This document shows, piece by piece, positions 704-42,751 of a stretch of 64,000 nt of DNA. Each line of letters begins with the position of its first letter. Within the stretch, counting starts at the first letter, position 1. Location: positions 2,303 to 66,302 of the forward strand of contig CAZNRH010000003.1 of NCBI GenBank assembly GCA_964575755.1, read 5' to 3'. The DNA comes from an uncultured Candidatus Saccharibacteria bacterium (GTDB taxonomy: Bacteria > Patescibacteriota > Minisyncoccia > Phycocordibacterales > JABMNX01). A model generated the notes under the pieces. It was not told the origin of the DNA and did not search any database. It saw only the letters and a list, made by a program, of their open reading frames with translations. Position numbers and translations under genes: made by a program.

Positions 704-2452
704 ATGTATATAAATGAAAAACAATTAAAAGAATTTATTCTTGATTCTGGTTTGGTATCTAAGAAAGCTTTTAAGGAAGCTGAAAAGGAGGCCAAGAAAA
801 AAGACCAATCTGTGGGCGATATTCTTGTAAGTAATGGAGACTTCACAGAAGACGATTTGCGCAGAACACAGGCGTACATCCTCGGCATACCTTTTGTGAA
901 TCTTCAGAACAAGCGAATAGATACTGAGGTACTCTCTCTTATTCCTGAACCAATTGCTAGAAATCATAACATTATTGCGTATAAAAAAACCGAAGACAGT
1001 CTTGAGGTTGCCATGTTAAACACTGACAACTTAACTGCAATCGATTTTGTTAAAAAGAAAGTGCGTTTAAAGATATTGCCACGACTTACTGACGCAGGTT
1101 CTATTAAGTCGGCACTCAAGCAGTACCAGAAAAGTCTTAAAGACGAGTTTGGTGACATTATTATGCGTGAGACTGCGTCACTCAAAGGGTTTTCTGGTGA
1201 AGAAGAGAACATGTCTGGCGAGGATCTTAAAAAGCTCGCAGAAGATTTGCCCGTAGTACGTATTGTTGATTCACTTCTTCGCCATGCAGTGAATCAAAAT
1301 GCATCGGATATTCATATTGAGCCGATGGATGATCAGGTTTTGATTCGCTATCGTATTGATGGCATCTTGCATGACGCAATGACTCTCCCTAAAAGTGCGG
1401 CGCCATCTATAACTGCTCGAATTAAAGTTCTCTCAAGTTTAAAACTTGATGAGAAGAGACTGCCACAAGACGGTCGTTTTAAGATGGAGACTGGAAATGA
1501 ACGAGTATCATTTCGTGTTTCTGTATTACCAACATATTACGGAGAAAAGACAGTGATGAGACTTTTACGTGAAGATATTTCTGGATTCACGCTCGAAGGT
1601 TTAGGATTCCACGGTGAAGGACTCGAGAAGATTCATAAAGCAACACGTCGTAAGACAGGAATGATACTGACAACAGGTCCAACAGGCTCTGGTAAGACCA
1701 CAACCCTATATACAATATTAGATATTTTAAATACAACAGATGTAAATATTTCTACTATCGAAGATCCTATCGAATATCAAATGCCAAGGATAAACCAAAC
1801 GCAGGTTAAACCAGATATCGGTTTCACTTTTGCGACAGGGCTCCGTGCTCTTGTACGACAAGATCCAGATGTGATTATGGTGGGGGAGATACGAGACAAT
1901 GAGACAGCATCTCTTGCTATCAATGCAGCCTTGACTGGCCACTTAGTTCTCTCAACGCTCCACACAAACTCTGCAGCTGGAGCTATGCCACGTCTTATGG
2001 ATATGGATTCGGAACCATTTTTGATTGTTTCTACGATAGAAGTAATTATCGGACAGCGTTTGGTTCGACAACTTTGTGACTCAAAAAAAGAGTACATCTT
2101 AACTGATTCAGAAATAAAGAAGCTTGAGAAGGTAGTTGATTTAGACACGGTATTAAAGGCGCTTAAGGAAGAAAAAATAGTAGATAAAAAAGCAACATGG
2201 AAAAGTATTCCTTTTTATAAAGAAGTGTCATCACAAGAATGTGAGGACGGGTTTAGTGGAAGACTTGGTATCCATGAGATTTTGTACATGTCAGATACGA
2301 TTAAAGGTCTGATAATGAAGGGCGCAACTTCAGAGGAGATAGAAGCACAAGCAAAGAGTGATGGCATGATGACTATGATAGAAGATGGAATATTTAAAGC
2401 CGCAAGAGGTATTACGACTATTGAAGAGGTGCTGCGTGTTATTTCTGAATAG
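704..2452 (+). CDS. pilB: Type IV pilus assembly ATPase of the PilB/GspE family
   Basis: Walker A motif GPTGSGKTTT, Asp/His boxes, and a GspE N-terminal domain, all characteristic of T2SS/T4P secretion ATPases. Confidence 0.9.
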   Translation: MYINEKQLKEFILDSGLVSKKAFKEAEKEAKKKDQSVGDILVSNGDFTEDDLRRTQAYILGIPFVNLQNKRIDTEVLSLIPEPIARNHNIIAYKKTEDSLEVAMLNTDNLTAIDFVKKKVRLKILPRLTDAGSIKSALKQYQKSLKDEFGDIIMRETASLKGFSGEEENMSGEDLKKLAEDLPVVRIVDSLLRHAVNQNASDIHIEPMDDQVLIRYRIDGILHDAMTLPKSAAPSITARIKVLSSLKLDEKRLPQDGRFKMETGNERVSFRVSVLPTYYGEKTVMRLLREDISGFTLEGLGFHGEGLEKIHKATRRKTGMILTTGPTGSGKTTTLYTILDILNTTDVNISTIEDPIEYQMPRINQTQVKPDIGFTFATGLRALVRQDPDVIMVGEIRDNETASLAINAALTGHLVLSTLHTNSAAGAMPRLMDMDSEPFLIVSTIEVIIGQRLVRQLCDSKKEYILTDSEIKKLEKVVDLDTVLKALKEEKIVDKKATWKSIPFYKEVSSQECEDGFSGRLGIHEILYMSDTIKGLIMKGATSEEIEAQAKSDGMMTMIEDGIFKAARGITTIEEVLRVISE

Positions 2453-2683
2453 AACGTGCGTTATTGGCGGATTTCTTTGTCACACTTCACTGAATGTCAC
2501 TCGCAGTATGTCTATACAGCTTGCTCTACTTAGCTCGTGCTCCTCGAACTACACCAATGACGCACGTTCTAGATGATACACGTACACTGAATATATTGAA
2601 TGTAGTAAGTTACAAGTAAGAAATGTCAAGTAATGCTATAATTTTTAAATAACTTTCAACTTGATAACTTTTAACTATTTTCC

Positions 2684-3895: not shown

Positions 3896-4035
3896 AAAAT
3901 ATTATGAACGTAGTGAATTAGATTTTCTTAACCCTGTTAAATCTTTTGCAAAGCAAAAGGAAAAATATGAAAGATTTTTCCTTAACGGGGTACAAGATTT
4001 CCTAACTTATTTTTGTTCAGTAGGCAAAACTTATA

Positions 4036-5364
4036 ATGTCACACATTCAAAACAAACAAAAAGGGACGACATTACTGGATGTTGTTTTTGGCACAGCATT
4101 ACTTCTGATTGTGTTTGTTGGGCTGTATGGAGTATTTCAGCTTACTCTCGAATTAGTGCAGAGTTCTAAATCTAAAACAGGTGCACTTACTCTTGCTAGT
4201 GAACGCATGGAGTTTATTCGTAGTCTCAATTATGATGACGTCGGTACGGTTGGCGGTATCCCGCAAGGAGTGCTCACTGCGGAAGAAAACAATACATTGA
4301 ATGGAATTCCATATACTAAAAAGACGTTTGTTCAATATGTCGACGCTGTAGAAGACGGAGTTGGTGGCTCTGATTCAAATGGAATAACAACAGACTATAA
4401 ACTCGTAAAAGTTACTATAGAATGGCTATTTCGAGGGGACGCACGTTCATTTTCTCTTGTAACAAATGTTACACCTCAAGGTATAGAATCGGTTGTTGGT
4501 GGCGGCACACTGCGCATTAATGTGCTTGATTCTTATGGTTCACCGGTGCCAAGCGCTCAAGTAAATCTTATAAATAACGCACTTAATCCATCTGTTTCTG
4601 TTTCGACATTTTCAAATATAAGTGGAGTTGTGGAGTTTCCTGGAGCCCCTTCGTCAAGTAGTTATGAGATTTCCATAAGTAAATCAGGGTTAAATAGCGC
4701 ACAGACATACTCTGTTGGAGGTCTAAACGTGAACCCAAATCCAGGACACTTAACAGTCGTAGAGGCACAGACAACATCTTCAACTTTTTACATAGACACT
4801 ACTGGCTCAGCAACAGTGCGCACTTTTGAAGCAGGTACAACAACACCACTTCAAAGTATTGACCTATCAATTGCTGGCAATAAAACGATAGGAACAGATG
4901 GAATAGATGATCCTATATATAAGTATAGCTCAGACATTAATACAGGCTCTTTAGGAAGCATTTTGCTAGAGGATCTTGAGTGGGATAATTACACAATCAC
5001 CATAGATAGTGGCGCAACAGGATACGAAATAGCACAGACGTGCGAACCTCAACCATTTGCACTTGCGCCATCAGAAAATAAGGTTGTAGATATGCATCTT
5101 ACTGACAGCTCCACGCATTATATTATTGTGGATGTTACCGATAGTATCGGTAACGATCTTGGTGGAGCAAATGTACGTTTGTATAATGGAGGATATAACA
5201 CTACGTTTTCAACTGATGACTGTGGACTGACTTCATTTAGTAATTCTTCTTCATGGGGTTCGTATTCGATAGATGTATCGCTTTCTGGATATACACCACA
5301 AACAGTGAATAGTGTTGACGCAAGTAGAATATCAAACTTGAGTATCGTGCTAAACAGTATCTAA
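4036..5364 (+). CDS. Large pseudopilin-like protein with an N-terminal hydrophobic helix and Ser/Thr-rich beta-domains
   Basis: The N-terminus reads KG-TTLLD-VVFGTALLLIVFVGL, a class-III signal-like motif with Asp at +5 instead of Glu. Long Thr/Ser/Gly-rich repeats follow. Confidence 0.5.
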   Translation: MSHIQNKQKGTTLLDVVFGTALLLIVFVGLYGVFQLTLELVQSSKSKTGALTLASERMEFIRSLNYDDVGTVGGIPQGVLTAEENNTLNGIPYTKKTFVQYVDAVEDGVGGSDSNGITTDYKLVKVTIEWLFRGDARSFSLVTNVTPQGIESVVGGGTLRINVLDSYGSPVPSAQVNLINNALNPSVSVSTFSNISGVVEFPGAPSSSSYEISISKSGLNSAQTYSVGGLNVNPNPGHLTVVEAQTTSSTFYIDTTGSATVRTFEAGTTTPLQSIDLSIAGNKTIGTDGIDDPIYKYSSDINTGSLGSILLEDLEWDNYTITIDSGATGYEIAQTCEPQPFALAPSENKVVDMHLTDSSTHYIIVDVTDSIGNDLGGANVRLYNGGYNTTFSTDDCGLTSFSNSSSWGSYSIDVSLSGYTPQTVNSVDASRISNLSIVLNSI

Positions 5365-13202: not shown

Positions 13203-14684
13203 ATGAAGAATATCGTCTACCTTATTGTTGGTGGGTTTGTTACGGGAGTGTTTTGGCGCTCCTTTTTTGATTTCGGGGTGGAATTCTCCGTATTCGTACT
13301 TAGTTTAGGTGCTGTGGTTTTATTAATGTCGTTTATTTTAAAAAGTAGACGGAATGTGTTGCTTGTTGTTATTTTTATTATTTCCGCAGCATTTGGATTG
13401 TTACGATACGATGTTGCGAACATACATCAAGGTAGTGCGGTGGTAGATAGTTTTGTCAACAAAACTATTCTTGCAGAGGGTATTGTAATAGATGAGCCAG
13501 ATGTGCGAGAGAGAAGCACAAACTACACGATTAAGTTACAAAGTGTTTCTGGAGTAGAGGTTTCAGAGAAGGTGCGTATTGTAGCCAATTCATATCCTCA
13601 GCTTACGTATGGAGATAAAGTTGTGGTGTCAGGTGAACTGCAAAAACCAAAAGGCTTTACAACAGATACTGGGAAATATTTTGACTATGCATCTTTTCTA
13701 TCTAAAGATGATATTTTTTACCAGGTGTTATTCCCTGAATTAGAGTTTGTGTCAGGAGGTCATGGAAATGTTATAAAACAATATTTATTTAGTTTTAAAA
13801 ATGCTTTTCTTTCTAAAATTCAGAGATTGATTCCAGATCCGCAAGTAGCTTTGCTTGGAGGATTGGTAGTTGGCGCTAAACAGTCATTAGGGGAAGAACT
13901 TCAAGATAATTTCCGTACCACTGGAATTATTCATATCGTTGTGTTGTCTGGATACAATGTGACAATTGTTGCAGAAGCCATCATGAGAACTTTTGCATTT
14001 CTTCCAAGACTAGCTGGCATGTCGCTTGGTGTAGTATCGATAGTATTATTTGCTCTTATTACAGGAGCGTCGGCAACTATAGTGCGCGCGAGTATTATGG
14101 CACTGTTTGTAATTTTGGCGCGAGCTACTGGCAGAACTTATGGCATGACGCAAGCATTACTTGTTGCTGGCTTTCTAATGGTCTTACATAATCCAAAGAT
14201 TTTAGTTTATGATGCGTCGTTCCAGCTTTCTTTTCTAGCAACTATTGGTTTGATACATTTTTCTCCTCTTCTTGATAGATATGTATCGTTTGTTCCTTCA
14301 AAGTTGCAGTTTCGAGAGTTTGCAACAGCTACAATAGCAACACAGATTTTTGTACTACCTCTTTTGTTATATAAAATAGGCGAGCTGTCTTTGGTTGCGC
14401 TCCCTGTAAACTTACTGGTACTTATTACAGTGCCAATAACGATGCTTTTCGGATTTCTTGCTGGAATTATCTCATTCGTAAGTTTTTTTCTCGCAACCCC
14501 ATTTGCGTTTATTGCTTACGTATTACTTACATACCAACTCAAAGTGGTCGAGTTGTTTGCAAATGTACCTTTTGCTTCAGTTAAAATTAGCACATTCCCA
14601 CTGTGGCTTATGCTTTTATTTTACGCTGTATATGCAATCATTTTGTGGAAGATTTACAGGAAAACTATTAACTCAATAACATAA
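13203..14684 (+). CDS. comEC: ComEC/Rec2 DNA-uptake channel comprising the N-terminal OB/DUF4131 domain and the competence membrane domain, without a C-terminal MBL domain
   Basis: Multi-TM competence domain with HIVVLSGYN-like motifs. Confidence 0.75.
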   Translation: MKNIVYLIVGGFVTGVFWRSFFDFGVEFSVFVLSLGAVVLLMSFILKSRRNVLLVVIFIISAAFGLLRYDVANIHQGSAVVDSFVNKTILAEGIVIDEPDVRERSTNYTIKLQSVSGVEVSEKVRIVANSYPQLTYGDKVVVSGELQKPKGFTTDTGKYFDYASFLSKDDIFYQVLFPELEFVSGGHGNVIKQYLFSFKNAFLSKIQRLIPDPQVALLGGLVVGAKQSLGEELQDNFRTTGIIHIVVLSGYNVTIVAEAIMRTFAFLPRLAGMSLGVVSIVLFALITGASATIVRASIMALFVILARATGRTYGMTQALLVAGFLMVLHNPKILVYDASFQLSFLATIGLIHFSPLLDRYVSFVPSKLQFREFATATIATQIFVLPLLLYKIGELSLVALPVNLLVLITVPITMLFGFLAGIISFVSFFLATPFAFIAYVLLTYQLKVVELFANVPFASVKISTFPLWLMLLFYAVYAIILWKIYRKTINSIT

Positions 14685-16606: not shown

Positions 16607-16780
16607 GTTTCAAAAAACTCGCATAGAGTGTGCTAAACGCAACTAGAGTCAGCAAGACTAGAACTTACAAAGTTAGATGCAATTCAAGGAGTAAACAAAA
16701 AATCCTACGAGTTGAACGTATTGGTTCATCGAGTAGGATTTTTTGTGCAACGACAAAGTAGTGCGCTAACTATGAATGTT

Positions 16781-17023
16781 CTAGATGAGGCCGGCTTTTT
16801 TGAGGGTCTTATAGGCCCCATTTTTGTTAATAGTCCTTATTGCTTTGGTTGAGAGCGTAAGAATCATTTTCTTACCTAACTCTGGTATAAAAATAGTTTT
16901 CTTTTGTAGGTTTGCGTAGCGACGGAACTTCTTACCTGGTATGTAAAAGTTAGCACGAAAACGGTTAACTCGTGTCTGAGCCATTTTTGAACTTTTACCT
17001 GTTATTGGACATACTTTTACCAT
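16781..17023 (-). CDS. rpmB: 50S ribosomal protein L28
   Basis: MVKVCPITGKS...RFRANF...TLSTKAIRTINKNG. The start is the internal ATG at 17023. Confidence 0.8.
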   Translation of the reverse strand: MVKVCPITGKSSKMAQTRVNRFRANFYIPGKKFRRYANLQKKTIFIPELGKKMILTLSTKAIRTINKNGAYKTLKKAGLI

Positions 17024-18275: not shown

Positions 18276-18737
18276 ATGCGACGACCACTTAAGAAAAAAA
18301 GAGAACTACAACCAGATCGTGTATACGATTCTGTTAATGTGTCAAAATTTATTAACTACGTAATGGAACGTGGTAAGAAAAATACAGCACGAAAGGTTGT
18401 ATACAATACATTCTTAGAGCTAAAGAAAAATGGAGACCCTGTTGAGATATTTGAAACAGCTTTGCGTAATGTAGAGCCTTCAATGGAAGTACGTTCAAGG
18501 CGAGTTGGTGGTGCAAACTATCAAGTTCCACGAGAGGTTCGTGCAGAAAGACGTTTGTCACTTTCAATGCGTTGGATACTTGCAGCTGCTAAATCACGCA
18601 AAGGTTCACCGATGCACAAGAGACTTGCAGAGGAGTTACTACTTGCAAGCAATAAAGAAGGAGAAGCAGTGAAGCGTAAGGTTAATACTCATAAGATGGC
18701 TGAGGCTAATAAGGCCTTTGCCCACTTCGCTTGGTAG
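18276..18737 (+). CDS. rpsG: 30S ribosomal protein S7
   Basis: [14 protein letters not shown]...[11 protein letters not shown]. Confidence 0.95.
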
Positions 18738-18923
18738 CAAACTTTCAGATTTGGCGCATTTCGTTGTTGCTCTACTAAAAAAGACGCTCGTCGTATTTTC
18801 AATACGTCTCGTGTCTTTTTTCTTGCGCGCCTAGAACTGCACTTAAATCTGAATGCTTGCTCTATGATTACTTCTAGAGATTTTTTATTTTATACATAAA
18901 ACTCATTGACCCTATTAAAGACT

Positions 18924-18952
18924 TGACGTGGGTATATTTATTTAGTATAAAT
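18924..18952 (+). promoter_or_regulatory. Sigma70-like promoter with -35 TTGACG and -10 TATAAAT separated by about 16 nt
   Basis: Near-consensus hexamers lying upstream of the gene at 18987. Confidence 0.5.
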
Positions 18953-18986
18953 TATTTAGATATTTCAACTCTGGGGAGTAAGAACA

Positions 18987-19484
18987 ATGCTTCAGTTCGC
19001 AGAAAATTGGTCTTGGGACATTAAGGCTTTGGTTGCTGTTGGGTTGGTATTTTCATTACCCATCCTACTAATCTTCTTTGGAAAACAATACGGAATGAGA
19101 AGCGAGGTGTTTCTCTTGGCGTGGATTGTTGGAGTAAGTGTAGCTTTTATTTTTCTAACTGCGATTTCCGAGACAATGGAAATTATAGAACTGGTTAACC
19201 CTTTTGTGCCTTTCTTGTGCGTTGTCTTATTTGGAGTAATCCTCGGCGGAGTGAGTAACATCCTTATTGCTCAATCAATTGCACAGGCACCTAATCCAGG
19301 ATTACCATGGGCAATATTTTCCATCAGTACACCGCTCGCTTATCTTTTGGCTTATGCTCTTGGAAAGGTATCTCCAACAATGTTTCCTGTGTTTGAATTT
19401 AACTGGGTTAACTTTGCTGGAGTCATTGTACTTGGCATTGGACTTATAATGGTAATGTACCAAACAAATCCATCTACCAATTAA
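18987..19484 (+). CDS. Integral membrane protein
   Basis: Five hydrophobic segments. It is inserted between rpsG and fusA. Confidence 0.5.
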   Translation: MLQFAENWSWDIKALVAVGLVFSLPILLIFFGKQYGMRSEVFLLAWIVGVSVAFIFLTAISETMEIIELVNPFVPFLCVVLFGVILGGVSNILIAQSIAQAPNPGLPWAIFSISTPLAYLLAYALGKVSPTMFPVFEFNWVNFAGVIVLGIGLIMVMYQTNPSTN

Positions 19485-19505
19485 CTCAGGAAATCTTTCA
19501 GCTAA

Positions 19506-19549
19506 CTGGGACTCGAACGATTTGTCGTTTGAGCCCCAGTTTTTCTTTT
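19506..19549 (+). terminator. Intrinsic terminator
   Basis: CTGGGACTC-(nested AACGA/TCGTT)-GAGCCCCAG followed by TTTTTCTTTT. Confidence 0.75.
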
Positions 19550-19682
19550 ATTATTTACTAAATTTTAATTTAATTTTTCAAAACAGGAGTTCTTTAAATG
19601 ACTACTTTCTATTTTCATATAAAAGTGATAGAACTAATACTAGATTAAGATGTAATTTATAAGACAAGGAAGGAGAATACTC

Positions 19683-20339
19683 ATGACTAGATTGAGCCTG
19701 TTCGCACCACTTTTCTTATTTGTATTCACTGCGTGCGCAGTAGTGACACAATACACTGACCCAAAAAAACAAACAGTAGTTGATACAGATCAAGCTCTCG
19801 ATCATTTAACATACGAAGATTGTTTACCTGAGGTGCGTAAAGTTAAAGGCCACAAAAGATTCCCCCCAGAGTTTTCTTTTGTGCGCAGTATAAGCACTAG
19901 AATAATTCTTTGTGATTTTTCTGGCGGAGAAAAGATAAGATTTTTTGGAAAAGTCATAAAAGTTCGTGGCAAGCCAGTATCCTCTGGAAACGGTCTTATC
20001 ATTTTTGACAGGCTGTCGAGAAAAATATCTGCTGACGGTTTAGTCAATGCGTACGCCGACTCAAGCAATAGGTTTAAAATTAATGTCAAAAAGAAACTTA
20101 TTCCTATAGAGAGGTATGGATTACTTCCAGTATTCATTATTTCTGGGAAAATGAAGTTTATTCCAAAGATAGTGATCGGAATGATCGTCGTCATAGACTT
20201 TGAGATAGAAGAAGGGGAGTTCACTGCGCTTATATGGGAATACGGAAACAGGATATCGCAAAGTGAAGTATCAAATCCATTTCAAGAGTTATTGTTAGAC
20301 ACCGTGGCACCTTCTCTTGGCGATGGGTCTGCTACATAA
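19683..20339 (+). CDS. Putative lipoprotein
   Basis: Signal peptide with lipobox LFVFTAC. Confidence 0.5.
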   Translation: MTRLSLFAPLFLFVFTACAVVTQYTDPKKQTVVDTDQALDHLTYEDCLPEVRKVKGHKRFPPEFSFVRSISTRIILCDFSGGEKIRFFGKVIKVRGKPVSSGNGLIIFDRLSRKISADGLVNAYADSSNRFKINVKKKLIPIERYGLLPVFIISGKMKFIPKIVIGMIVVIDFEIEEGEFTALIWEYGNRISQSEVSNPFQELLLDTVAPSLGDGSAT

Positions 20340-20362
20340 AAAGTTAAGTCTTTTTAGATTGT

Positions 20363-20394
20363 ATCCCCCAAAACACTTTAGTGTTTTGGGGGAT
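20363..20394 (+). terminator. Hairpin terminator
   Basis: Perfect 14-bp stem ATCCCCCAAAACAC-TTTA-GTGTTTTGGGGGAT. Confidence 0.6.
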
Positions 20395-20488
20395 GGTTGT
20401 TTCGCATTGCACTCATTGAATTTATACTGTATTCTACTTGCAACTGTGGCGTTTGAGCCACTTTTTAATTTAAAATATCTATTTATAT

Positions 20489-22633
20489 ATGGAACGAGAA
20501 TATCCACTAGAAAGAGTCCGTAACTTCGGAATTATAGCCCACATCGATGCGGGTAAGACCACTGTGTCTGAGCGCATACTTTTCTATACAGGAGAAAGTC
20601 ATAAGATAGGTGAAGTTCACGACGGAGAGACTGTAACCGACTGGATGGAACAAGAGCGAGAGCGAGGTATCACTATTACCGCCGCCGCTATTTCCTGCTT
20701 GTGGAATAAGACAGATGAAGACCCTGATGATAATTCCAAAAAATACAGTTTTAACATTATTGATACTCCAGGACACATCGACTTCACAGTAGAGGTAAAA
20801 CGCTCAATGAGCGTGCTCGACGGAGCTATTGTTGTATTCGACGGTGTTTCAGGAGTAGAACCACAGTCAGAAACTAACTGGCGATATGCAGACGAAGCCG
20901 GAGTGCCTAGAATATGTTTTATTAACAAGCTTGACCGAACAGGAGCAAGTTTTGAGCGTTCATACGCAAGTATTCTCGATAGACTTTCACCAAATGCAGT
21001 ACGACTTCAGATTCCAATAGGCGAGGAGACAGACCATAAAGGAGTAATAGACCTGCTTGCCATGAAAGGATATACATTTGACGGAGTAATGGGAAAGGAT
21101 GTCATAAAAGGAGAGGTTCCAGAAAACCTTAAAGCAGATGCAGAGAAATATCGAGCAGAGCTTATAGAAAAAATAGTTGAACATGATGATGATCTTATGA
21201 ATCTATACCTTGAAGGTAAAGAGATACCATATGAAGATTTAAAAAGAGTTCTGAGAGTAGCAATTCTTAAGAACGCTATCTTTCCAGTATATGCTGGTTC
21301 AGCACTAAAGAACAAAGGAGTTCAGTTGGTGCTCGACGGCGTTGTTGATTACTTACCGTCACCAATGGACCTTCCGCCAGTAAAAGGAACAGACCCAAAA
21401 ACAGGAGAAGAAATATTACGAAAGCCTTCAGATGATGAACCGTTTGCAGCGCTAGCATTCAAGCTACAAACAGATCCATTTGTTGGTCAGCTTACATTCT
21501 TCCGTGTGTATTCAGGTACAGCAGAAGCTGGTTCATACATTTACAATGCATCAACGAAGAGTAAAGAACGACTCGGGCGAATTGTTCGCTTACAGGCTGA
21601 TAAACGAGAAGAAATAAAGAAAGTATTTGCAGGAGAGATTGCAGCTGCAGTTGGACTTAAAGATACAAAGACATCACACACACTTTGTGACGTAGATAAT
21701 CCAATTATTCTTGAAGAAATTACATTCCCAGAGCCAGTTATATCTCTGCGTATTGAACCTAAGACAAAAGCAGACCAAGAGAAGATGGGAATCGCACTCA
21801 ATAAACTTTCTGACGAGGATCCAACATTTAAAGTGAGTTCAGATTCTGAAACCATGGAGACAGTAATATCAGGAATGGGAGAGCTTCACCTTGAGATTCT
21901 TGTTGACCGTATGAAGAGAGAGTTTAATGTAGAGGCAGATGTAGGAACACCACAAGTGTCTTACAAAGAAACAATCCAAGGAGCGTCAGAAGCTGAAATA
22001 AAATACATAAAACAATCTGGTGGGCGTGGTCAATATGGTCATGTAAAGATTCGAATCAAACCACTTGAAGAGATTGAAGAAGGCGCAAAGATTGCAAAGA
22101 ACATAAAGAGAAGCGACCACTTCGAGTTTGTAAACTCAATTAAAGGAGGCGTTATTCCCCAGGAGTATATTCCAGCAGTTGAGAAGGGTGTTAAAGAAGC
22201 AATGGACAGAGGTATTCTTGCAGGATACAAAGCAGTTGATATTTCAGTAGAGCTTTACGATGGTTCATACCACGATGTTGACTCATCAGAAATTGCTTTC
22301 AAGATTGCAGGTTCACAAGCATTTAAAGATGCAGCAAGTAGAGCAAAGCCAGTACTTCTTGAGCCGATTATGAAAGTAGAAGTAGTAACCCCTGAGAAAT
22401 TCATGGGAGACATCAATGGAAACCTAAGTTCAAAGCGTGGACAGGTTGAAAGCATGGAAGACAGAGGAGGAAACAAGGTAATTAACGCTAAAGTACCTCT
22501 TTCAGAAATGTTTGGATACACCACAACACTACGCTCTATGACAGAAGGGCGAGCAAGTTCAACTATGGAGTTTGACCACTACGCAGTCGTACCTCAAAAT
22601 GTTGCAAAGGATATAATAGATGCAAGGAATTAA
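20489..22633 (+). CDS. fusA: Elongation factor G
   Basis: [10 protein letters not shown]-loop, DTPGHIDF, and domain IV/V motifs. Confidence 0.97.
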
Positions 22634-22719: not shown

Positions 22720-22760
22720 GCAAAAGACATTATCGACGCAAGGAACTAGAGTTTCTATTG
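22720..22760 (+). repeat. Displaced duplicate of the last 10 codons of fusA ([10 protein letters not shown]), carrying only synonymous substitutions
   Basis: Compare 22604-22643 with 22720-22760. Seven codons differ and all encode the same residues. An 85-bp insert separates the two copies. Confidence 0.8.
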
Positions 22761-22772
22761 TAAAATATACAT

Positions 22773-22806
22773 AAATAAATGCCCCAGGTACCTGGGGCAT
22801 TTATTT
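22773..22806. terminator. Perfect palindromic terminator AAATAAATGCCCCAGGTACCTGGGGCATTTATTT (family A)
   Basis: 16-bp stem between fusA and tuf. Related copies occur at 33491, 40024 and 50589. Confidence 0.75.
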
Positions 22807-23016
22807 ATGTATATTTTACGCCAGAATACTTGACTTATACATTCATTTCTTGCTATTATAGCGTCATCGCAATGGGCGCCTTTTTGTATGGGGATTCTTT
22901 TCTCTTGTATATTTAGATGTCTGTAGCTTATTATCAATAAGTATTTTTAAGAAGTAAATCACTTGTTCTCGCGCGTTTACTTTTCAAAAATACTAAATAT
23001 TTTAAATAAAATTATT

Positions 23017-24293: not shown

Positions 24294-24710
24294 ATGACAA
24301 CCAAAGATACAAAGAAAGAAAAAGTAGTAAAGAAATCTACCAAGAAAAAAGTAGCCAAGAAGGTTGCACCTAAGAAGGCAACTAAAAAAGCTGCTGGAGA
24401 GGGAATTTCAAGATTACGTATTCGTGTGCGAGCATACGAACATAAACTTCTTGATACGTCTGTAAAACAGATTATTGATACTGCACTTCGGTATGATGCT
24501 GAAGTTGTCGGACCAACACCTCTTCCTACAGAAAGGAAGTTATACACTGTTAATCGTTCCAGTTTCGTACACAAAGATGCGCGAGAACAATTTGAAATGC
24601 GTGTACATAAGAGAATGATTGATATCCTCAACCCAAATCAAAAAGTTGTAGAGTCTTTGACTAATCTTTCTTTGCCGTCTGGTGTGAACATCGACGTAAA
24701 AATGCTCTAG
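24294..24710 (+). CDS. rpsJ: 30S ribosomal protein S10 with a Lys-rich N-terminal extension of about 40 aa
   Basis: S10 core RIRVRAYEHKLLD...VVGPTPLPT, preceded by KKEKVVKKSTKKKVAKKVAPKKATKKAAGE. Confidence 0.9.
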   Translation: MTTKDTKKEKVVKKSTKKKVAKKVAPKKATKKAAGEGISRLRIRVRAYEHKLLDTSVKQIIDTALRYDAEVVGPTPLPTERKLYTVNRSSFVHKDAREQFEMRVHKRMIDILNPNQKVVESLTNLSLPSGVNIDVKML

Positions 24711-24838
24711 TCGCAATCTCAAAAGCACTTCATCTGCGTTATTGTGGTTTAGAAAATCTCTTTCGCCGTATTGATTACGTCTCTAGAGATTTTCCTTCCA
24801 CACTTCGCATCTAAAGCACTTTTGAAATTGCTTAACAA

Positions 24839-24871
24839 AACACGCCATGTATGGCGTGTTTTGTGTTTTTT
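24839..24871 (+). terminator. Intrinsic terminator AACACGCCAT-GT-ATGGCGTGTT followed by TTGTGTTTTTT (family B)
   Basis: 10-bp GC-rich stem plus a U-tract. A related copy lies at 42236. Confidence 0.85.
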
Positions 24872-24921
24872 ACTGTGAAATGCGGTACTATTAATGTAGA
24901 GGTGTTAGACTTGTAATAAGT

Positions 24922-25203
24922 ATGGAGGAGAAAGAAATGGTGAATAATACTTTAGGAATTGACGTTCTGGAGGCTCTCGAACAAGCTGCTGTGGAACAGA
25001 CACCGAACGATGACGGCAGTTGTAAGACCGAAGGATGTAAAGGGAAAATAACCAAACAAGTTAGAGGAAAATCGAGTTACGGATATTTTTTTGATCCTGC
25101 TAAATGCGAAAATTGCTCGAGAGCTTATTTAAATTACGAATACGCTCAACCTATAGGCATAGCAGAATTTGAAGAGTCATTAAATCAACCCATGACGATT
25201 TAA
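24922..25203 (+). CDS. Small Cys4 zinc-ribbon protein, inserted between rpsJ and rplC
   Basis: CKTEGC...C-x2-C pattern (CENCS) with an acidic N-terminus. The gene is preceded by its own terminator. Confidence 0.45.
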   Translation: MEEKEMVNNTLGIDVLEALEQAAVEQTPNDDGSCKTEGCKGKITKQVRGKSSYGYFFDPAKCENCSRAYLNYEYAQPIGIAEFEESLNQPMTI

Positions 25204-25357
25204 GTGGTTCGAATACTTTAATAGGTCATATGTAATCTTTGTATATGGCCTATACTTTTTCTTGCATTATTTAATGACTTCTATATACTCTTCCCTAGAA
25301 ATGTATTGAATCGTTGACTCGATACATACACAATATTATAAAGAAAGGAATTGAAAG

Positions 25358-25630
25358 ATGTCCGATCTAGATGTTGCCATGAACGCTTTGCTTGATTGGG
25401 AAGCAATGTTAGCGAGCTTGGGCATGCAAAGAAATGCTGATGCAATAGGTATTTTGTGGCATGTCCGCAACTTGGGAAAAAGCCATAGAAGAAATTTCTT
25501 GCTTGTTCTGAAGGGAACAGGTCACTGCTCTGACGAATTTATCGTCGATTCAAGTATAGGTGAGCAAGCTGCTATAAGTCTTAAAAGACTTTTCAAAGCT
25601 GCTGGCGAACCTCAGTTCGACGAAGAATAA
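25358..25630 (+). CDS. Hypothetical 90-aa protein, inserted in the S10 operon
   Basis: ORF with the upstream AG-rich sequence AAAGAAAGGAATTGAAAG. Confidence 0.4.
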   Translation: MSDLDVAMNALLDWEAMLASLGMQRNADAIGILWHVRNLGKSHRRNFLLVLKGTGHCSDEFIVDSSIGEQAAISLKRLFKAAGEPQFDEE

Positions 25631-25828
25631 AATTGAACCTTTGTTCGATTAACCTGCCCTACGCAATCTGGCGTAGGGTTTTCTTTTTCTTGCAATATTT
25701 AGCTACTCCTGTATACTCTCTTTTGTACCTATTTAGTTTAGGTAGCTATGTTCTCTCAAGTGGGAACCTATGGCATATTCCATTGTTTGGATGCGCCATT
25801 ACGGCGCCTTTTTTGTACATATTTTTAA

Positions 25829-32341: not shown

Positions 32342-32875
32342 ATGTCATTAACAAAAGAAAAACAAAATAGTATTTTTGGCTCTATTAAAGAGAAGTTAAA
32401 CTACACAAACGTTTCTCAGTCACCAAAGATTGAAAAAGTCTCCGTGTCTGTTGGAGTTGGCTCAATAAAGGATAAAAAGAAAATAGAGACAATTATAGAT
32501 CGACTTACAAAAATAACAGGACAAAAGCCTTCTGCCTGCCCTGCAAAGAAGTCAATCGCTACATTTAAGCTTCGAGAAGGAGACGTTATTGGATACCAGG
32601 TGACACTGCGTGGTTCACGTATGTATGATTTTCTTGATAAGCTCATCCATGTTGCACTTCCAAGAACTCGTGACTTTAGGGGAATTAAACTTTCATCAAT
32701 AGATGAGATGGGTAATATTTCTATCGGGATTAAAGAGCATACAATATTCCCAGAGACTTCAGATGAAGAGCTAAGGAATGTATTTGGAATGAGTATTACT
32801 ATTACAACTTCATCTAGTACGAGAGAAGAGACTGAGGCTTTGTTACGCGGCATACAATTCCCACTTCAGAAATAA
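32342..32875 (+). CDS. rplE: 50S ribosomal protein L5
   Basis: KLREGDVIGYQVTLRGSRMYDFLDKLI...PRTRDFRG. Confidence 0.95.
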   Translation: MSLTKEKQNSIFGSIKEKLNYTNVSQSPKIEKVSVSVGVGSIKDKKKIETIIDRLTKITGQKPSACPAKKSIATFKLREGDVIGYQVTLRGSRMYDFLDKLIHVALPRTRDFRGIKLSSIDEMGNISIGIKEHTIFPETSDEELRNVFGMSITITTSSSTREETEALLRGIQFPLQK

Positions 32876-32992
32876 AACCCCATTTTAAGCGAATTACTTC
32901 GTTGTGTTCGCGAAAATATTGTTCACAATACGCTTGTATTGCTCTCAATATTTTCGCTCCACAGCCTCGTACTTCATCTTAAAATGGGGTTT
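32875..32992. repeat. 118-nt nested hairpin element with 15-bp perfect terminal inverted repeats AAACCCCATTTTAAG/CTTAAAATGGGGTTT, an inner 12-bp stem GCGAAAATATTG/CAATATTTTCGC and a core hairpin CAATAC-GCTT-GTATTG
   Basis: It fills the entire rplE-to-next-gene spacer. Its left arm begins inside the rplE stop codon and its right arm ends 5 nt before the ATG at 32998. Confidence 0.8.
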
Positions 32993-32997
32993 CTGGG

Positions 32998-33453
32998 ATG
33001 TTTGATAAAGCGATTCGTGCTCTTTCAAAAGAAGAAAATGATTCAAGTTATATATCAGATGTACACGTTGTATTTTGGGGTGATATAAAAAATGAGGGAT
33101 ATAATCACTTAAGAGAAATATTAGAAAAGGAGTATAAAATAAATAAAAAATTTAAAGAAAAGATTCTTTACTTTGTAAATAAATACGTTGAATTTAGAGA
33201 GGCTGAAGTCTCTGAAGGAGACAAAGATAAGCTCGCTGGTTATATCATAAGCGAACTACCGACTCTGTTAGGTGGAGTTTTGTGGAACAACACTTTATAT
33301 GATCTTGTTCTTTATCCAACATATGTAGATAGTGGAATGAGTCAATTCGTTTTAGATATACGAGGAGGTAAATATTTCGATTCTTCAAAACTTCTCTTGA
33401 GACAGCTCAATACTCTTGTGGAAGATTATCTGGAAAAGCCCAAGTTATCCTGA
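32998..33453 (+). CDS. Hypothetical 151-aa protein, inserted between rplE and rpsN
   Basis: The ORF is bracketed by the nested hairpin element upstream and a 19-bp-stem terminator downstream. Confidence 0.45.
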   Translation: MFDKAIRALSKEENDSSYISDVHVVFWGDIKNEGYNHLREILEKEYKINKKFKEKILYFVNKYVEFREAEVSEGDKDKLAGYIISELPTLLGGVLWNNTLYDLVLYPTYVDSGMSQFVLDIRGGKYFDSSKLLLRQLNTLVEDYLEKPKLS

Positions 33454-33490
33454 AAAATAAGTCTATATAGACTAGTAAACAACCATTTCA

Positions 33491-33541
33491 AGCCATTTTA
33501 AATGCCCCAGGTGGTTGGGGCATTTAAAATGGCTTGTTTTG
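33491..33541. terminator. Terminator of family A: AGCCATTTTAAATGCCCCA-GGTGGT-TGGGGCATTTAAAATGGCT followed by TGTTTTG
   Basis: 19-bp perfect stem. Confidence 0.85.
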
Positions 33542-33658
33542 TGGCAAAAGTTGCTTAAAACCCTTTTAGAACAAGAGTTTTATTTGACTTTAGGCGCTTC
33601 AACTGATAATATGTGCCAAGCGTTTCAAAGCGCTTTTTTAATTAGCTATATATAATTC

Positions 33659-37508: not shown

Positions 37509-37705
37509 GACTCCAAAATTTGCTAAAACTCCTAAAATTGACCCAGAGCTTCGTCAGTTACGAAAAAAGTTTTCTCACCGTATGTTCATACGGCTCAAAA
37601 ACTTTTTTCTTACTTTCTCGCCCTGAATCAATTTAATGAGTTTATGTCCCTTCGTTTGGCGTTCAATTTTTAAACAGTGGAGATGAATAAGGTATACTAG
37701 ATATC

Positions 37706-42161: not shown

Positions 42162-42230
42162 CCTACTTAGGTGTTGGACACCTAAGTAATATTACGTATA
42201 TTTAGGTTTGCAAGACATTCAGATTTAAAC

Positions 42231-42258
42231 AAAAACACACGCCGTATGGCGTGTTTTT
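42231..42258. terminator. Bidirectional terminator of family B: AAAAACACACGCC-GTAT-GGCGTGTTTTT
   Basis: Lies between the convergent beta-CASP and rplT genes. Confidence 0.8.
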
Positions 42259-42403
42259 CAATAATATATTGTTTGTTTCTATTAAAACTTACACACTTGG
42301 ATGCAATTCAAGGCGCAAGTGGAAAATAGAAGAAATCATATGCACAATATGGTGACTGATATTTTTCACGCAGTAACGAAGAAGTGCGCCTAGTGTGTAA
42401 GTT

Positions 42404-42751
42404 TTACTTAGCTTGTTCAACGATTCGAGAGAAAGTCTCAGGTCGATCCTTTGCAATCTGTGAAAGTACTTTTCGATCAAGTCCGATTTCTTTCTTACCA
42501 AGTGCATATATAAACCTACTGTAAGAAGGGAAGTTGAGCGCTCGAACCGCAGCGTTGATACGCACAGTCCAAAGTCGTCTGAAGTCTCCTTTCTTGTCTT
42601 TTCTATGACCAAAAGCATTTTCTCCAGCATGCTTGATAGCATCGTATGCCATGCTCTTTTTTGTAGAACGTCCAAAACGATATCCTTTTGTTTGCTCTAA
42701 GGTGTACCCTCTGCTTTTTGATTTAGTTGTTCCTCGTTTAACTCGTGCCAT
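42404..42751 (-). CDS. rplT: 50S ribosomal protein L20
   Basis: MARVKRGTTKSKSRGYTLEQTKGYRFGRS. Confidence 0.95.
   Translation of the reverse strand: MARVKRGTTKSKSRGYTLEQTKGYRFGRSTKKSMAYDAIKHAGENAFGHRKDKKGDFRRLWTVRINAAVRALNFPSYSRFIYALGKKEIGLDRKVLSQIAKDRPETFSRIVEQAK

Follow-up and report, generated by a model that had tools for sequence, protein, structure and literature searches.

What is the long hairpin that fills the spacer downstream of the ribosomal protein gene rplE in an uncultured patescibacterium? It lies in a 64-kb stretch of DNA (contig CAZNRH010000003.1 of assembly GCA_964575755.1; this whole stretch is called the window below). An earlier reading of the sequence (the original prediction) had noted a 118-nt nested hairpin at positions 32875-32992, between rplE and an open reading frame (ORF) named ORF151. 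Two roles had been proposed for it, a mobile insertion similar to a MITE (miniature inverted-repeat transposable element) and a structured regulatory RNA. The analysis described here demonstrates that the hairpin is one of seven related copies in the window, and that further copies occur at other gene junctions of other Patescibacteria. The most probable explanation, to which we assign a probability of roughly 60%, is a dispersed non-coding family of MITE-like palindromes of ~130 nt in a subgroup of Patescibacteria (Paceibacteria, or Kaiserbacteria- and Campbellbacteria-like), which land on stop codons and are retained as mRNA hairpins. The family is apparently undescribed; full-text literature searches yielded no report of MITE- or REP-like families in Patescibacteria.

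The hairpin downstream of rplE

The hairpin is real, and all sequence details of the original prediction match the window. The outer arms are complementary at 15 of 15 positions. The left arm begins on the final A of the rplE stop codon (TAA, 32873-32875), and the right arm stops 5 nt short of the ATG at 32998. Between the arms there are a 12-bp stem GCGAAAATATTG/CAATATTTTCGC (32910-32921 and 32946-32957) and an apical hairpin CAATAC-GCTT-GTATTG (32926-32941). Folded as RNA, a 128-nt stretch covering the element forms a single nested hairpin with the energy -51 kcal/mol. The energy of 200 shuffled sequences is -18.9 +/- 3.3 kcal/mol (z = -9.8), and none of them folds as well.

The only ORFs overlapping the element encode 44-49 amino acids and run through the arms. 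The element contains a promoter-like match (32958-32985), whose quality does not exceed the expectation from shuffled sequences. No Rfam match overlaps positions 32875-32992, either at the gathering thresholds or at E up to 10. With the element as the query, blastn retrieved nothing from phages, plasmids or 5,426 complete E. coli genomes, and the exact pattern of the core motifs described below has no match in viral contigs.

The original prediction proposed to look for further copies using the 15-nt arms. Such a search in the window, allowing up to three mismatches, retrieved only the element itself. It would miss the family, because the arms are specific to each copy and it is the structure and the core motif that are shared.

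Seven copies in the window

The closest relative at hand (locus L004, GCA_964625905.1), whose ribosomal proteins are 86-98% identical to those of the window, has a nested hairpin at the same site after rplE. The arms and stems of this hairpin are entirely different, and the two hairpins have in common only the segments ...CTACTTCGTTGT... and ...CCTCGTAC... A third hairpin was found directly 3' of rplE in a marine metagenome contig (L165), whose L5 protein is 56% identical to that of the window. Again the stems differ, and the core 14-mers CGAATTACTTCGTT and GCCTCGTACTTCAT are identical to those of the window. The TAC-to-GTAC span separating the motifs measures 78 nt in the window, 77 nt in L004 and 78 nt in L165. 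Two more hairpins of the window, one downstream of pilB and the other, on the minus strand, downstream of rplT, can be aligned with these three rplE copies almost without gaps.

A covariance model (R1) was trained on these five copies and run over the window unfiltered. It recovered four window copies that were not in the training set (E = 5e-16 to 3e-5; scores in Table 1). In total, the window contains seven copies, on both strands. A second model (R2), built from 16 copies, confirms all seven and adds none. The copies are 118-135 nt long, have the GC content of 36-46% (38% in the window as a whole) and are single, not arrayed. Together they occupy about 1.4% of the window. The genes upstream of the copies were assigned by Pfam.

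Table 1. Copies of the repeat family in the window, parts of the rplE copy and neighbouring features (R1 and R2, covariance models; a slash in a sequence marks the border of the element)
Feature	Position	Strand	Comment
rplE copy of the family	32875..32992	+	118-nt nested hairpin; covariance-model match 32869-32998, 105 bits R1, 96 bits R2
Left outer arm AAACCCCATTTTAAG	32875..32889	+	first A doubles as the final base of the rplE stop codon; family terminus TA/RAAC
Left core motif CGAATTACTTCGTTGTGTTC	32890..32909	+	family-conserved part GCGCAyTaCTTCGTT; 14-mer identical in L165 (alignments A1-A3)
Distal hairpin	32910..32957	+	12-bp stem, 4x4 internal loop, 6-bp stem, GCTT loop
Right core motif TCCACAGCCTCGTACTTCAT	32958..32977	+	family-conserved part GCCTCGwAyTGCAT
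Right outer arm CTTAAAATGGGGTTT	32978..32992	+	last 7 nt (32986-32992) also start the synthase remnant; usual TA flank absent
Copy after pilB (T2SSE ATPase)	2447..2576	+	starts on stop TAG; 111 bits R1, 99.5 bits R2
Copy after rpmB (L28)	16655..16786	-	starts on stop TAG; 76 bits R1 (non-training), 122 bits R2
Copy after rpsG (S7)	18734..18864	+	starts on stop TAG; 79 bits R1 (non-training), 114 bits R2
Copy after rpsJ (S10)	24708..24837	+	more degenerate; 33 bits R1 (non-training), 88 bits R2
Copy after secY, before adk	37521..37649	+	R1 match 37524-37647; 16 nt past secY stop; 55 bits R1 (non-training), 91 bits R2
Copy after rplT (L20)	42278..42409	-	starts on stop TAA; 125 bits R1, 119 bits R2
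rplE (ribosomal protein L5), upstream gene	32342..32875	+	Pfam Ribosomal_L5 and L5_C
5'-truncated tRNA-dependent cyclodipeptide synthase gene (ORF151)	32998..33453	+	about 86 N-terminal residues absent
Canonical intrinsic terminator after the synthase remnant	33489..33536	+	21-bp stem, then TTTTG; outside the element
Promoter-like site, leader hairpin and U-run before rpsN	33584..33641	+	TTGACT-17-TAATAT (with TG) 33584-33612; hairpin 33618-33635

Structure and covariation

A typical copy consists of TA, RAAC with an outer stem of 15-18 bp, the motif GCGCAyTaCTTCGTT, a distal hairpin of ~60 nt, the motif GCCTCGwAyTGCAT, the outer stem ending in GTTY, and TA. In terms of RNA, the left half is TA / RAAC + outer stem / C / GCA / U / UAC / UUC / GU, followed by the distal hairpin, and the right half is GC / CUC / GUA / C / UGC / AU / outer stem + GTTY / TA. 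Two 3-bp helices, split by a U.C mismatch, and then a 3x3 all-pyrimidine internal loop make up the core. Outer stems of 15-18 bp are found in the best copies, and the pair RAAC...GTTY is the family terminus. The distal hairpin is conserved in length, and its sequence is specific to each copy; the apical hairpin has a loose consensus TC(A/G)CCGTA...TACGGC.

The pairwise identity between copies is only 43-50%. In a MAFFT alignment of 16 copies, which was not fitted to the structure, paired cells amount to 84.9%, as compared to 61% in shuffled alignments and 38-51% when the partners are slid. Compensatory double changes were observed in 38 of the 39 pairs. None of 500 shuffles reached the real alignment in any of five pairing measures.

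An alternative in which the two motifs bound an 88-nt unit that had entered the stem of a pre-existing terminator was considered and dropped, because the outer arms and the RAAC/GTTY termini are themselves features of the family.

Copies in other Patescibacteria

L5-anchored scans of GTDB genomes and JGI metagenomes produced 160 loci (L006-L165). The best L5 matches in these genomes and metagenomes have 66-69% identity and are labelled Campbell-, Kaiser- or Paceibacteria. At least 13 further copies of the family were found in ten other Patescibacteria loci, at varied gene junctions. Besides the rplE copies of L004 and L165, these are copies after rplE (L021), after rplN (L009, L012 and one of two copies in L014), between rplX and rplE (L137 and, in the reversed orientation, the other copy of L014), before rpsN (L061, reversed), after rpsN and after rplF (two copies of L120), after a gene downstream of rplE (L117) and after rpmB (L166). 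Even ribosomal genes with a usual spacing of 4-20 nt have copies between them. In particular, the median rplN-rplX gap is 10 nt across about 150 loci.

Other palindromic inserts, 120-180 nt in length, were observed 3' of the rplN stop codon in L061, L079, L100, L066, L112/L026 and L132. Some of them begin with ...AACGAGCGCAGCG, which resembles the outer arm and core of the family. They are not detected by R2 and are probably additional subfamilies.

Position at stop codons

All seven window copies point in the same direction as the upstream gene, and overall 18 of 20 copies are sense-oriented with respect to upstream or flanking genes. In six of the seven window copies, the start coincides with the TAA or TAG stop codon of the upstream gene. 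Roughly half of all copies have the flanks TA/R...Y/TA; the pilB copy, for example, reads TA/GAAC...GTTC/TA/G. Nine sense copies were checked at the right-hand TA, and in each of them the next base is A or G, which yields TAG or TAA at this end. At the left end, the stop codon is restored by the first base of the element itself, A or G, which is paired with the last base. An insertion would thus leave the upstream protein as it was, the first purine of the element rebuilding its stop codon.

This flank pattern is what would result if an element entered a stop codon at its TA and the TA became duplicated. Copies would enter the TA of TAA or TAG, the first purine would restore the stop, and the inserted element would then be transcribed together with the upstream gene.

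Filled and empty sites

Larger loci of close relatives were obtained via homologues of EF-G (83-90% identity in this protein). The L28 site is filled in the window and in L166. It is empty in L167, where the sequence reads ..ATA TAG ACT.., and in L170, where the gap is 12 nt; there is no copy in L168. The S7 site is filled in the window and empty in L166, with a gap of 35 nt to fusA. In L167 there is no copy at this site but a different insert, and L168 and L170 have no copy. At the S10 site, filled in the window, L166 has a short form of ~90 nt with the two core motifs abutting, L167 is empty, and L168 and L170 have no copy. The L5 site is filled in the window and in L004 and empty in L167, where a terminator, a promoter and rpsN are found; there is no copy in L168. 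No family copies were found in about 76 kb of L167, L168, L169, L170 and L171. Judging by the compared sequences, this pattern of filled and empty sites is that of a mobile or recently expanded element.

Two observations concern L166. The short form after rpsJ (about 14245-14300) reads CTACTTCGTCGC-TAG-CTCGTATCT; it lacks the distal hairpin and is orthologous to the window copy at 24708. A gene encoding a reverse transcriptase (415-2172; RVT_1 with a DnaG-type zinc ribbon) adjoins an RNase H gene about 6 kb from a family copy.

Two same-site comparisons give contrasting results. Between the window and L004, the rplE copies share 43% identity, falling to about 33% outside the core, whereas the identity at four-fold degenerate sites is 66%. 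This points to replacement or independent insertion of the rplE copies. For the L28-site pair of the window and L166, the identity is 84% (about 91% in the interior), compared to 57% at four-fold sites and 38% in the next 100 nt, and one clean T-A to G-C compensation was observed in this pair. As the L28-site copy is conserved like coding sequence, its conservation suggests selection at the level of the host.

A truncated cyclodipeptide synthase gene

The ORF downstream of the rplE copy had been described as an inserted gene. This description is incomplete: ORF151 corresponds to the C-terminal 151 residues of a cyclodipeptide synthase of ~240 amino acids. It has 111 homologues, most of them 230-260 amino acids long and carrying the PF16715 domain, and matches only their C-terminal 151 residues. 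The direct Pfam match of ORF151 to the synthase family is weak (E = 0.008), and the identity is convincing only via the homologues. In L004, a full-length synthase gene (4001-4714, 237 amino acids) lies between rplE and rpsN. The gene is absent from this place in L167 and L168. Another homologue, in L005, has an unrelated genomic context and no family element.

The blastn homology between the window and L004 ends at 32872 and resumes at 32986, corresponding to position 4247 of L004. The in-frame codons GGG GTT TCT GGG preceding the ATG of ORF151 encode G-V-S-G, the same as the G(I/V)SG that precedes MFDK in the homologues. Thus the last 7 nt of the right arm are at the same time the first bases of the synthase remnant, and the right arm is a deletion junction. 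Relative to L004, about 290 bp are lost, comprising the spacer and 82 codons. The deletion likely proceeded via the microhomology GGGGTTT, present at the end of the arm and in codons 84-85 of the synthase gene. It would have joined the right arm to codon 84 and left the truncated ORF151. Such a deletion would explain both the shared 7 nt and the absent TA flank without invoking coincidence. In AlbC-type enzymes the catalytic serine is in the N-terminal part. As this part is missing from ORF151, the remnant is very probably inactive.

Across the relatives (L006-L171), the gap between rplE and rpsN varies from 20 to 2365 nt. The S7-fusA and S10-L3 gaps of close relatives contain differing accessory or unannotated ORFs, encoding, for example, a sigma70_r4 protein and an HD-domain protein. 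In the window, the rpsG-fusA junction lies at 18865-20488 and the rpsJ-rplC junction at 24838-25828. By this comparison of gap contents, the rplE-rpsN, rpsG-fusA and rpsJ-rplC junctions are hotspots of insertion.

Terminators and the rpsN leader

The rpsN gene is preceded by signals of its own (Table 1). The leader hairpin and U-run have the sequence AAGCGTTTCAAAGCGCTTTTTT, and relatives carry the equivalent ACGCTCYTCGGAGCTTTATTTTT at the same place. The same arrangement of a terminator, a promoter and a leader is found at rpsN of L167 (about 21180-21260), where there is neither the element nor ORF151, and similar upstream signals were observed in many relatives, including many Kaiserbacteria loci. 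The promoter-like site with its small hairpin and U-run before rpsN is a better candidate for a leader or attenuator of the rplE-rpsN junction than the hairpin originally reported.

The segment 33346-33705 is identical to L004 in 360 of 360 positions, while the identity in the flanking bins is 77-92%. Besides the 3' end of the remnant synthase gene, it includes the terminator, promoter-like site and leader hairpin as well as ~45 nt at the start of rpsN, and it looks like a recent recombination tract between the lineages of the window and L004.

In a scan for terminators, the rplE element was not called, whereas its neighbours 33489-33536 and 33618-33635 were; there is no U-tract after the stem of the element. 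Three copies (24708, 42409 and that of L004) are each followed by a separate simple terminator, respectively 24835-24864, 42229-42257 and about 3975-3995 of L004. The first two of these terminators share the core AAAACACGCC..GGCGTGTTTT, and one of the same kind follows the short S10-site copy of L166 (about 14305-14340). Possibly, these terminators represent another small repeat or a linked module. Between fusA and tuf (22753-22826), there is a near-perfect loopless palindrome of 37 bp (z = -11.5), probably a bidirectional terminator, which shares AAATGCCCCAGGT with the terminator at 33489-33536.

Possible function and alternative explanations

The MITE-like interpretation is supported by the dispersed copies at different junctions, by the many TA...TA flanks and by the filled and empty orthologous sites. 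It is right in kind, with the correction that the copies share structure and a core motif rather than the 15-nt arms. The hairpin is probably kept as a structure at the 3' end of mRNA or between cistrons, where it would stop exonucleases or guide processing, similar to what is proposed for ERIC, Correia and REP elements.

A number of observations weigh against this explanation. The role in mRNA, although the most likely one, is suggested by analogy only. About half of the copies have no clean TA flanks, and, since TA is palindromic, the TA...TA flanks are indistinguishable from an inverted repeat that is 2 bp longer. Between copies, the variation of the outer arms far exceeds that of inverted repeats in classical MITEs. 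Neither a transposase nor an autonomous element whose ends match was found among the tabulated genes of the fetched loci. The copy counts come from regions rich in ribosomal protein genes, not from whole genomes. The 84% conservation at the L28 site could stem from a younger or transferred insertion, and recombination between the lineages of the window and L004 does occur, as the 360-nt tract with 100% identity indicates. Finally, the two strands of the element are not equivalent. In the gene-sense strand, there are 182 pyrimidine-pyrimidine mismatches against 39 purine-purine ones, and 55 A.C against 23 G.U pairs. For this reason the antisense strand folds better, by 1-26 kcal/mol, in all 17 copies tested. 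This asymmetry is opposite to the prediction of simple selection on a sense-strand RNA hairpin. It is not a local compositional bias, as the coding strands in the window are purine-rich; for GC skew, gene orientation and replication direction are inseparable in the window. Possible causes are that the mRNA needs pyrimidine loops, that selection acts against loops 3' of stop codons which are purine-rich, resemble the Shine-Dalgarno box or bear start codons, or that the bottom strand has a function as DNA or RNA.

Another explanation is that the elements are sites of single-stranded DNA recombination or transposition folded as the bottom strand, similar to attC or to palindromes derived from IS200/IS605, which might insert accessory genes into ribosomal operons. 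The better folding of the antisense strand, the excess of pyrimidine-pyrimidine mismatches in the sense strand, the conserved 3x3 bubble and single mismatch of the core, the ..AAC/GTT.. termini and the non-ribosomal ORFs that follow the window copies after rpsG, rpsJ and rplE are all in line with such sites. However, the termini do not fit RYYYAAC/GTTRRRY, the right end being GTTTTAG; there are no arrays of alternating elements and ORFs, and the two copies of L120 bracket the core genes rpsH-rplF; the cyclodipeptide synthase gene of L005 has no element; and no integrase or HUH transposase was seen beside any copy in the available gene tables. A recombination site of this kind is therefore very improbable, and the more specific idea of attC-like cassettes was dropped, as the core sites are lacking, there are no arrays, and no integrase was seen. 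The idea that the hairpin is a dedicated cis-regulatory RNA of the rplE-rpsN junction, that is, an attenuator, a thermosensor or an S8-type site controlling readthrough into ORF151 and rpsN, is hardly tenable. It would agree with the stable structure between rplE and the next ORF, with the right arm, whose end lies 5 nt upstream of the ATG, where it would mask any ribosome-binding site, and with the copies after rplE in L004, L165 and L021. But the same element follows the unrelated genes pilB, secY, rplT and rpmB, as well as rpsG, rpsJ, rplN, rpsN and rplF. Among the 160 L5-anchored relatives it occurs after rplE only in L021, L165 and, further downstream, L117, and it is absent after rplE in the close relatives L167 and L168. 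The downstream ORF is a truncated gene brought beside the element by a deletion, no Rfam leader family matches, and rpsN carries its own terminator, promoter and leader, so that the attenuator and S8 interpretations of the original prediction are not supported. It is also unlikely that the hairpin is an unusually long intrinsic terminator that ends the upstream transcription unit of the S10-spc operon after rplE. Many relatives indeed have a hairpin with a T-run directly 3' of rplE and a promoter before rpsN, long perfect hairpins serve as terminators in this genome (e.g. 22753-22826 and 33489-33536), and the outer stems end in GTTT or GTTTTA. On the other hand, most copies have no U-tract after the stem and the rplE element is not called by the scan, three copies are followed by a separate canonical terminator, and some copies lie between genes that are normally co-transcribed (pilB-pilC, secY-adk, rplN-rplX, rpsN-rpsH). 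Moreover, neither the conserved core motif nor the fixed length is needed for termination.

The elements may also be purely selfish MITEs without host function, in which case the hairpin would reflect transposon inverted repeats or a hairpin intermediate of transposition, and the stop-codon sites and orientation would simply be those where a very compact genome tolerates insertion. The patchy distribution among close relatives, with empty sites, the turnover of the rplE-site copy (43% identity between the window and L004) and the existence of degenerate or short copies (24708 with 33 bits by R1, the ~90-nt form of L166 at the S10 site) are what one would expect of such elements, and rebuilding of the stop codon makes insertion there neutral. 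We consider this doubtful, as the identity of the two copies at the L28 site is 84%, compared to 57% at four-fold sites and 38% in the neighbouring spacer, and the stems stay paired through compensatory changes in copies that share only 45-50% identity. Both ends begin with R, and so either orientation restores the stop, yet 18 of 20 copies are in the sense orientation; the operon-end copies after rplT and rpmB sit exactly on the stop codon despite free intergenic space downstream. The family may also, quite tentatively, be a domesticated structured RNA module that spread by transposition onto stop codons of genome-reduced Patescibacteria and then came under purifying selection, with the core recognized by a protein or ribonuclease on which the fate of ribosomal-protein mRNAs and other highly expressed mRNAs would depend. 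The candidate binding core would be the 3x3 pyrimidine loop flanked by the UAC/GUA and GCA/UGC helices. If true, this would be a new regulatory class of 3' untranslated and intercistronic regions in bacteria with little other known post-transcriptional control.

Significance

Genomes of Patescibacteria, also known as the Candidate Phyla Radiation, belong to the most streamlined ones known, and repeats and mobile DNA are usually said to be scarce in them. The repeat family is a concrete case for how selfish or domesticated DNA persists under extreme genome reduction. Its elements mark the hotspots where accessory genes, such as the cyclodipeptide synthase, enter ribosomal operons and decay, and the covariance model can flag such elements in metagenome-assembled genomes. 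If the role in RNA is true, the family would also offer a way to approach mRNA processing and stability in bacteria that are difficult to cultivate.

Comparison with known repeat families

In the same way as bacterial MITEs in general, the family is small and non-coding, has terminal inverted repeats and dispersed copies, and occupies sites that are filled in some genomes and empty in others; the poor conservation of the arm sequence is unusual for a MITE. The TA flanks are compatible with a RUP-like MITE of the IS630/Tc1-mariner type, subject to the above ambiguity with a longer inverted repeat. RUP of Streptococcus pneumoniae (107 bp) inserts at TA and is thought to be mobilised by IS630-Spn1, and processing by RNase III was proposed for the RNA hairpins of the Correia/NEMIS elements of Neisseria (PMC2229807). 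Similar to both, the elements considered here are small, non-coding, multi-copy inverted repeats, about half of them with TA/.../TA flanks. Unlike in RUP and Correia, the terminal repeats are conserved as structure and the short RAAC/GTTY termini rather than as a sequence of 20-30 nt. The gene tables of the fetched loci contain neither a cognate IS630-type element nor a transposase. The preference for stop codons, the sense orientation and the regeneration of the stop are not described for RUP and Correia in the review PMC2229807.

Integron attC sites (57-141 nt) are also imperfect palindromes immediately following an ORF, with conserved ends, a variable centre, conserved unpaired positions and strand asymmetry. 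The family differs from them in its ends, TARAAC...GTTYTAR instead of RYYYAAC/GTTRRRY, in the lack of an observed integrase and of cassette arrays, and in its location among essential ribosomal genes. For REPs, mRNA stabilisation and action at the DNA level were hypothesised (PMC3733652). The family resembles REP/BIME elements in consisting of extragenic palindromes located at gene 3' ends or in intercistronic spacers. However, the latter are G+C-rich units of 20-40 nt with a GTAG/CGTC tag, occur in arrays and are associated with RAYT, whereas our elements are ~130 nt long, A+T-rich, untagged and single.

The ERIC (IRU) elements of enterobacteria are imperfect palindromes of 127 bp in transcribed intergenic regions, for which an effect on mRNA stability was proposed (PMC2229807). 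Likewise, the elements of the family are about 125-130 nt long, form one long imperfect hairpin, occupy both operon-internal and gene-end sites, vary in presence at orthologous sites and are probably co-transcribed with the flanking genes. They have no sequence similarity to ERIC, with no blastn match in the 5,426 E. coli genomes, and belong to a different host group, Patescibacteria. In addition, unlike in ERIC, the left end of the element lies on a stop codon, and the arms differ greatly among the copies yet stay paired.

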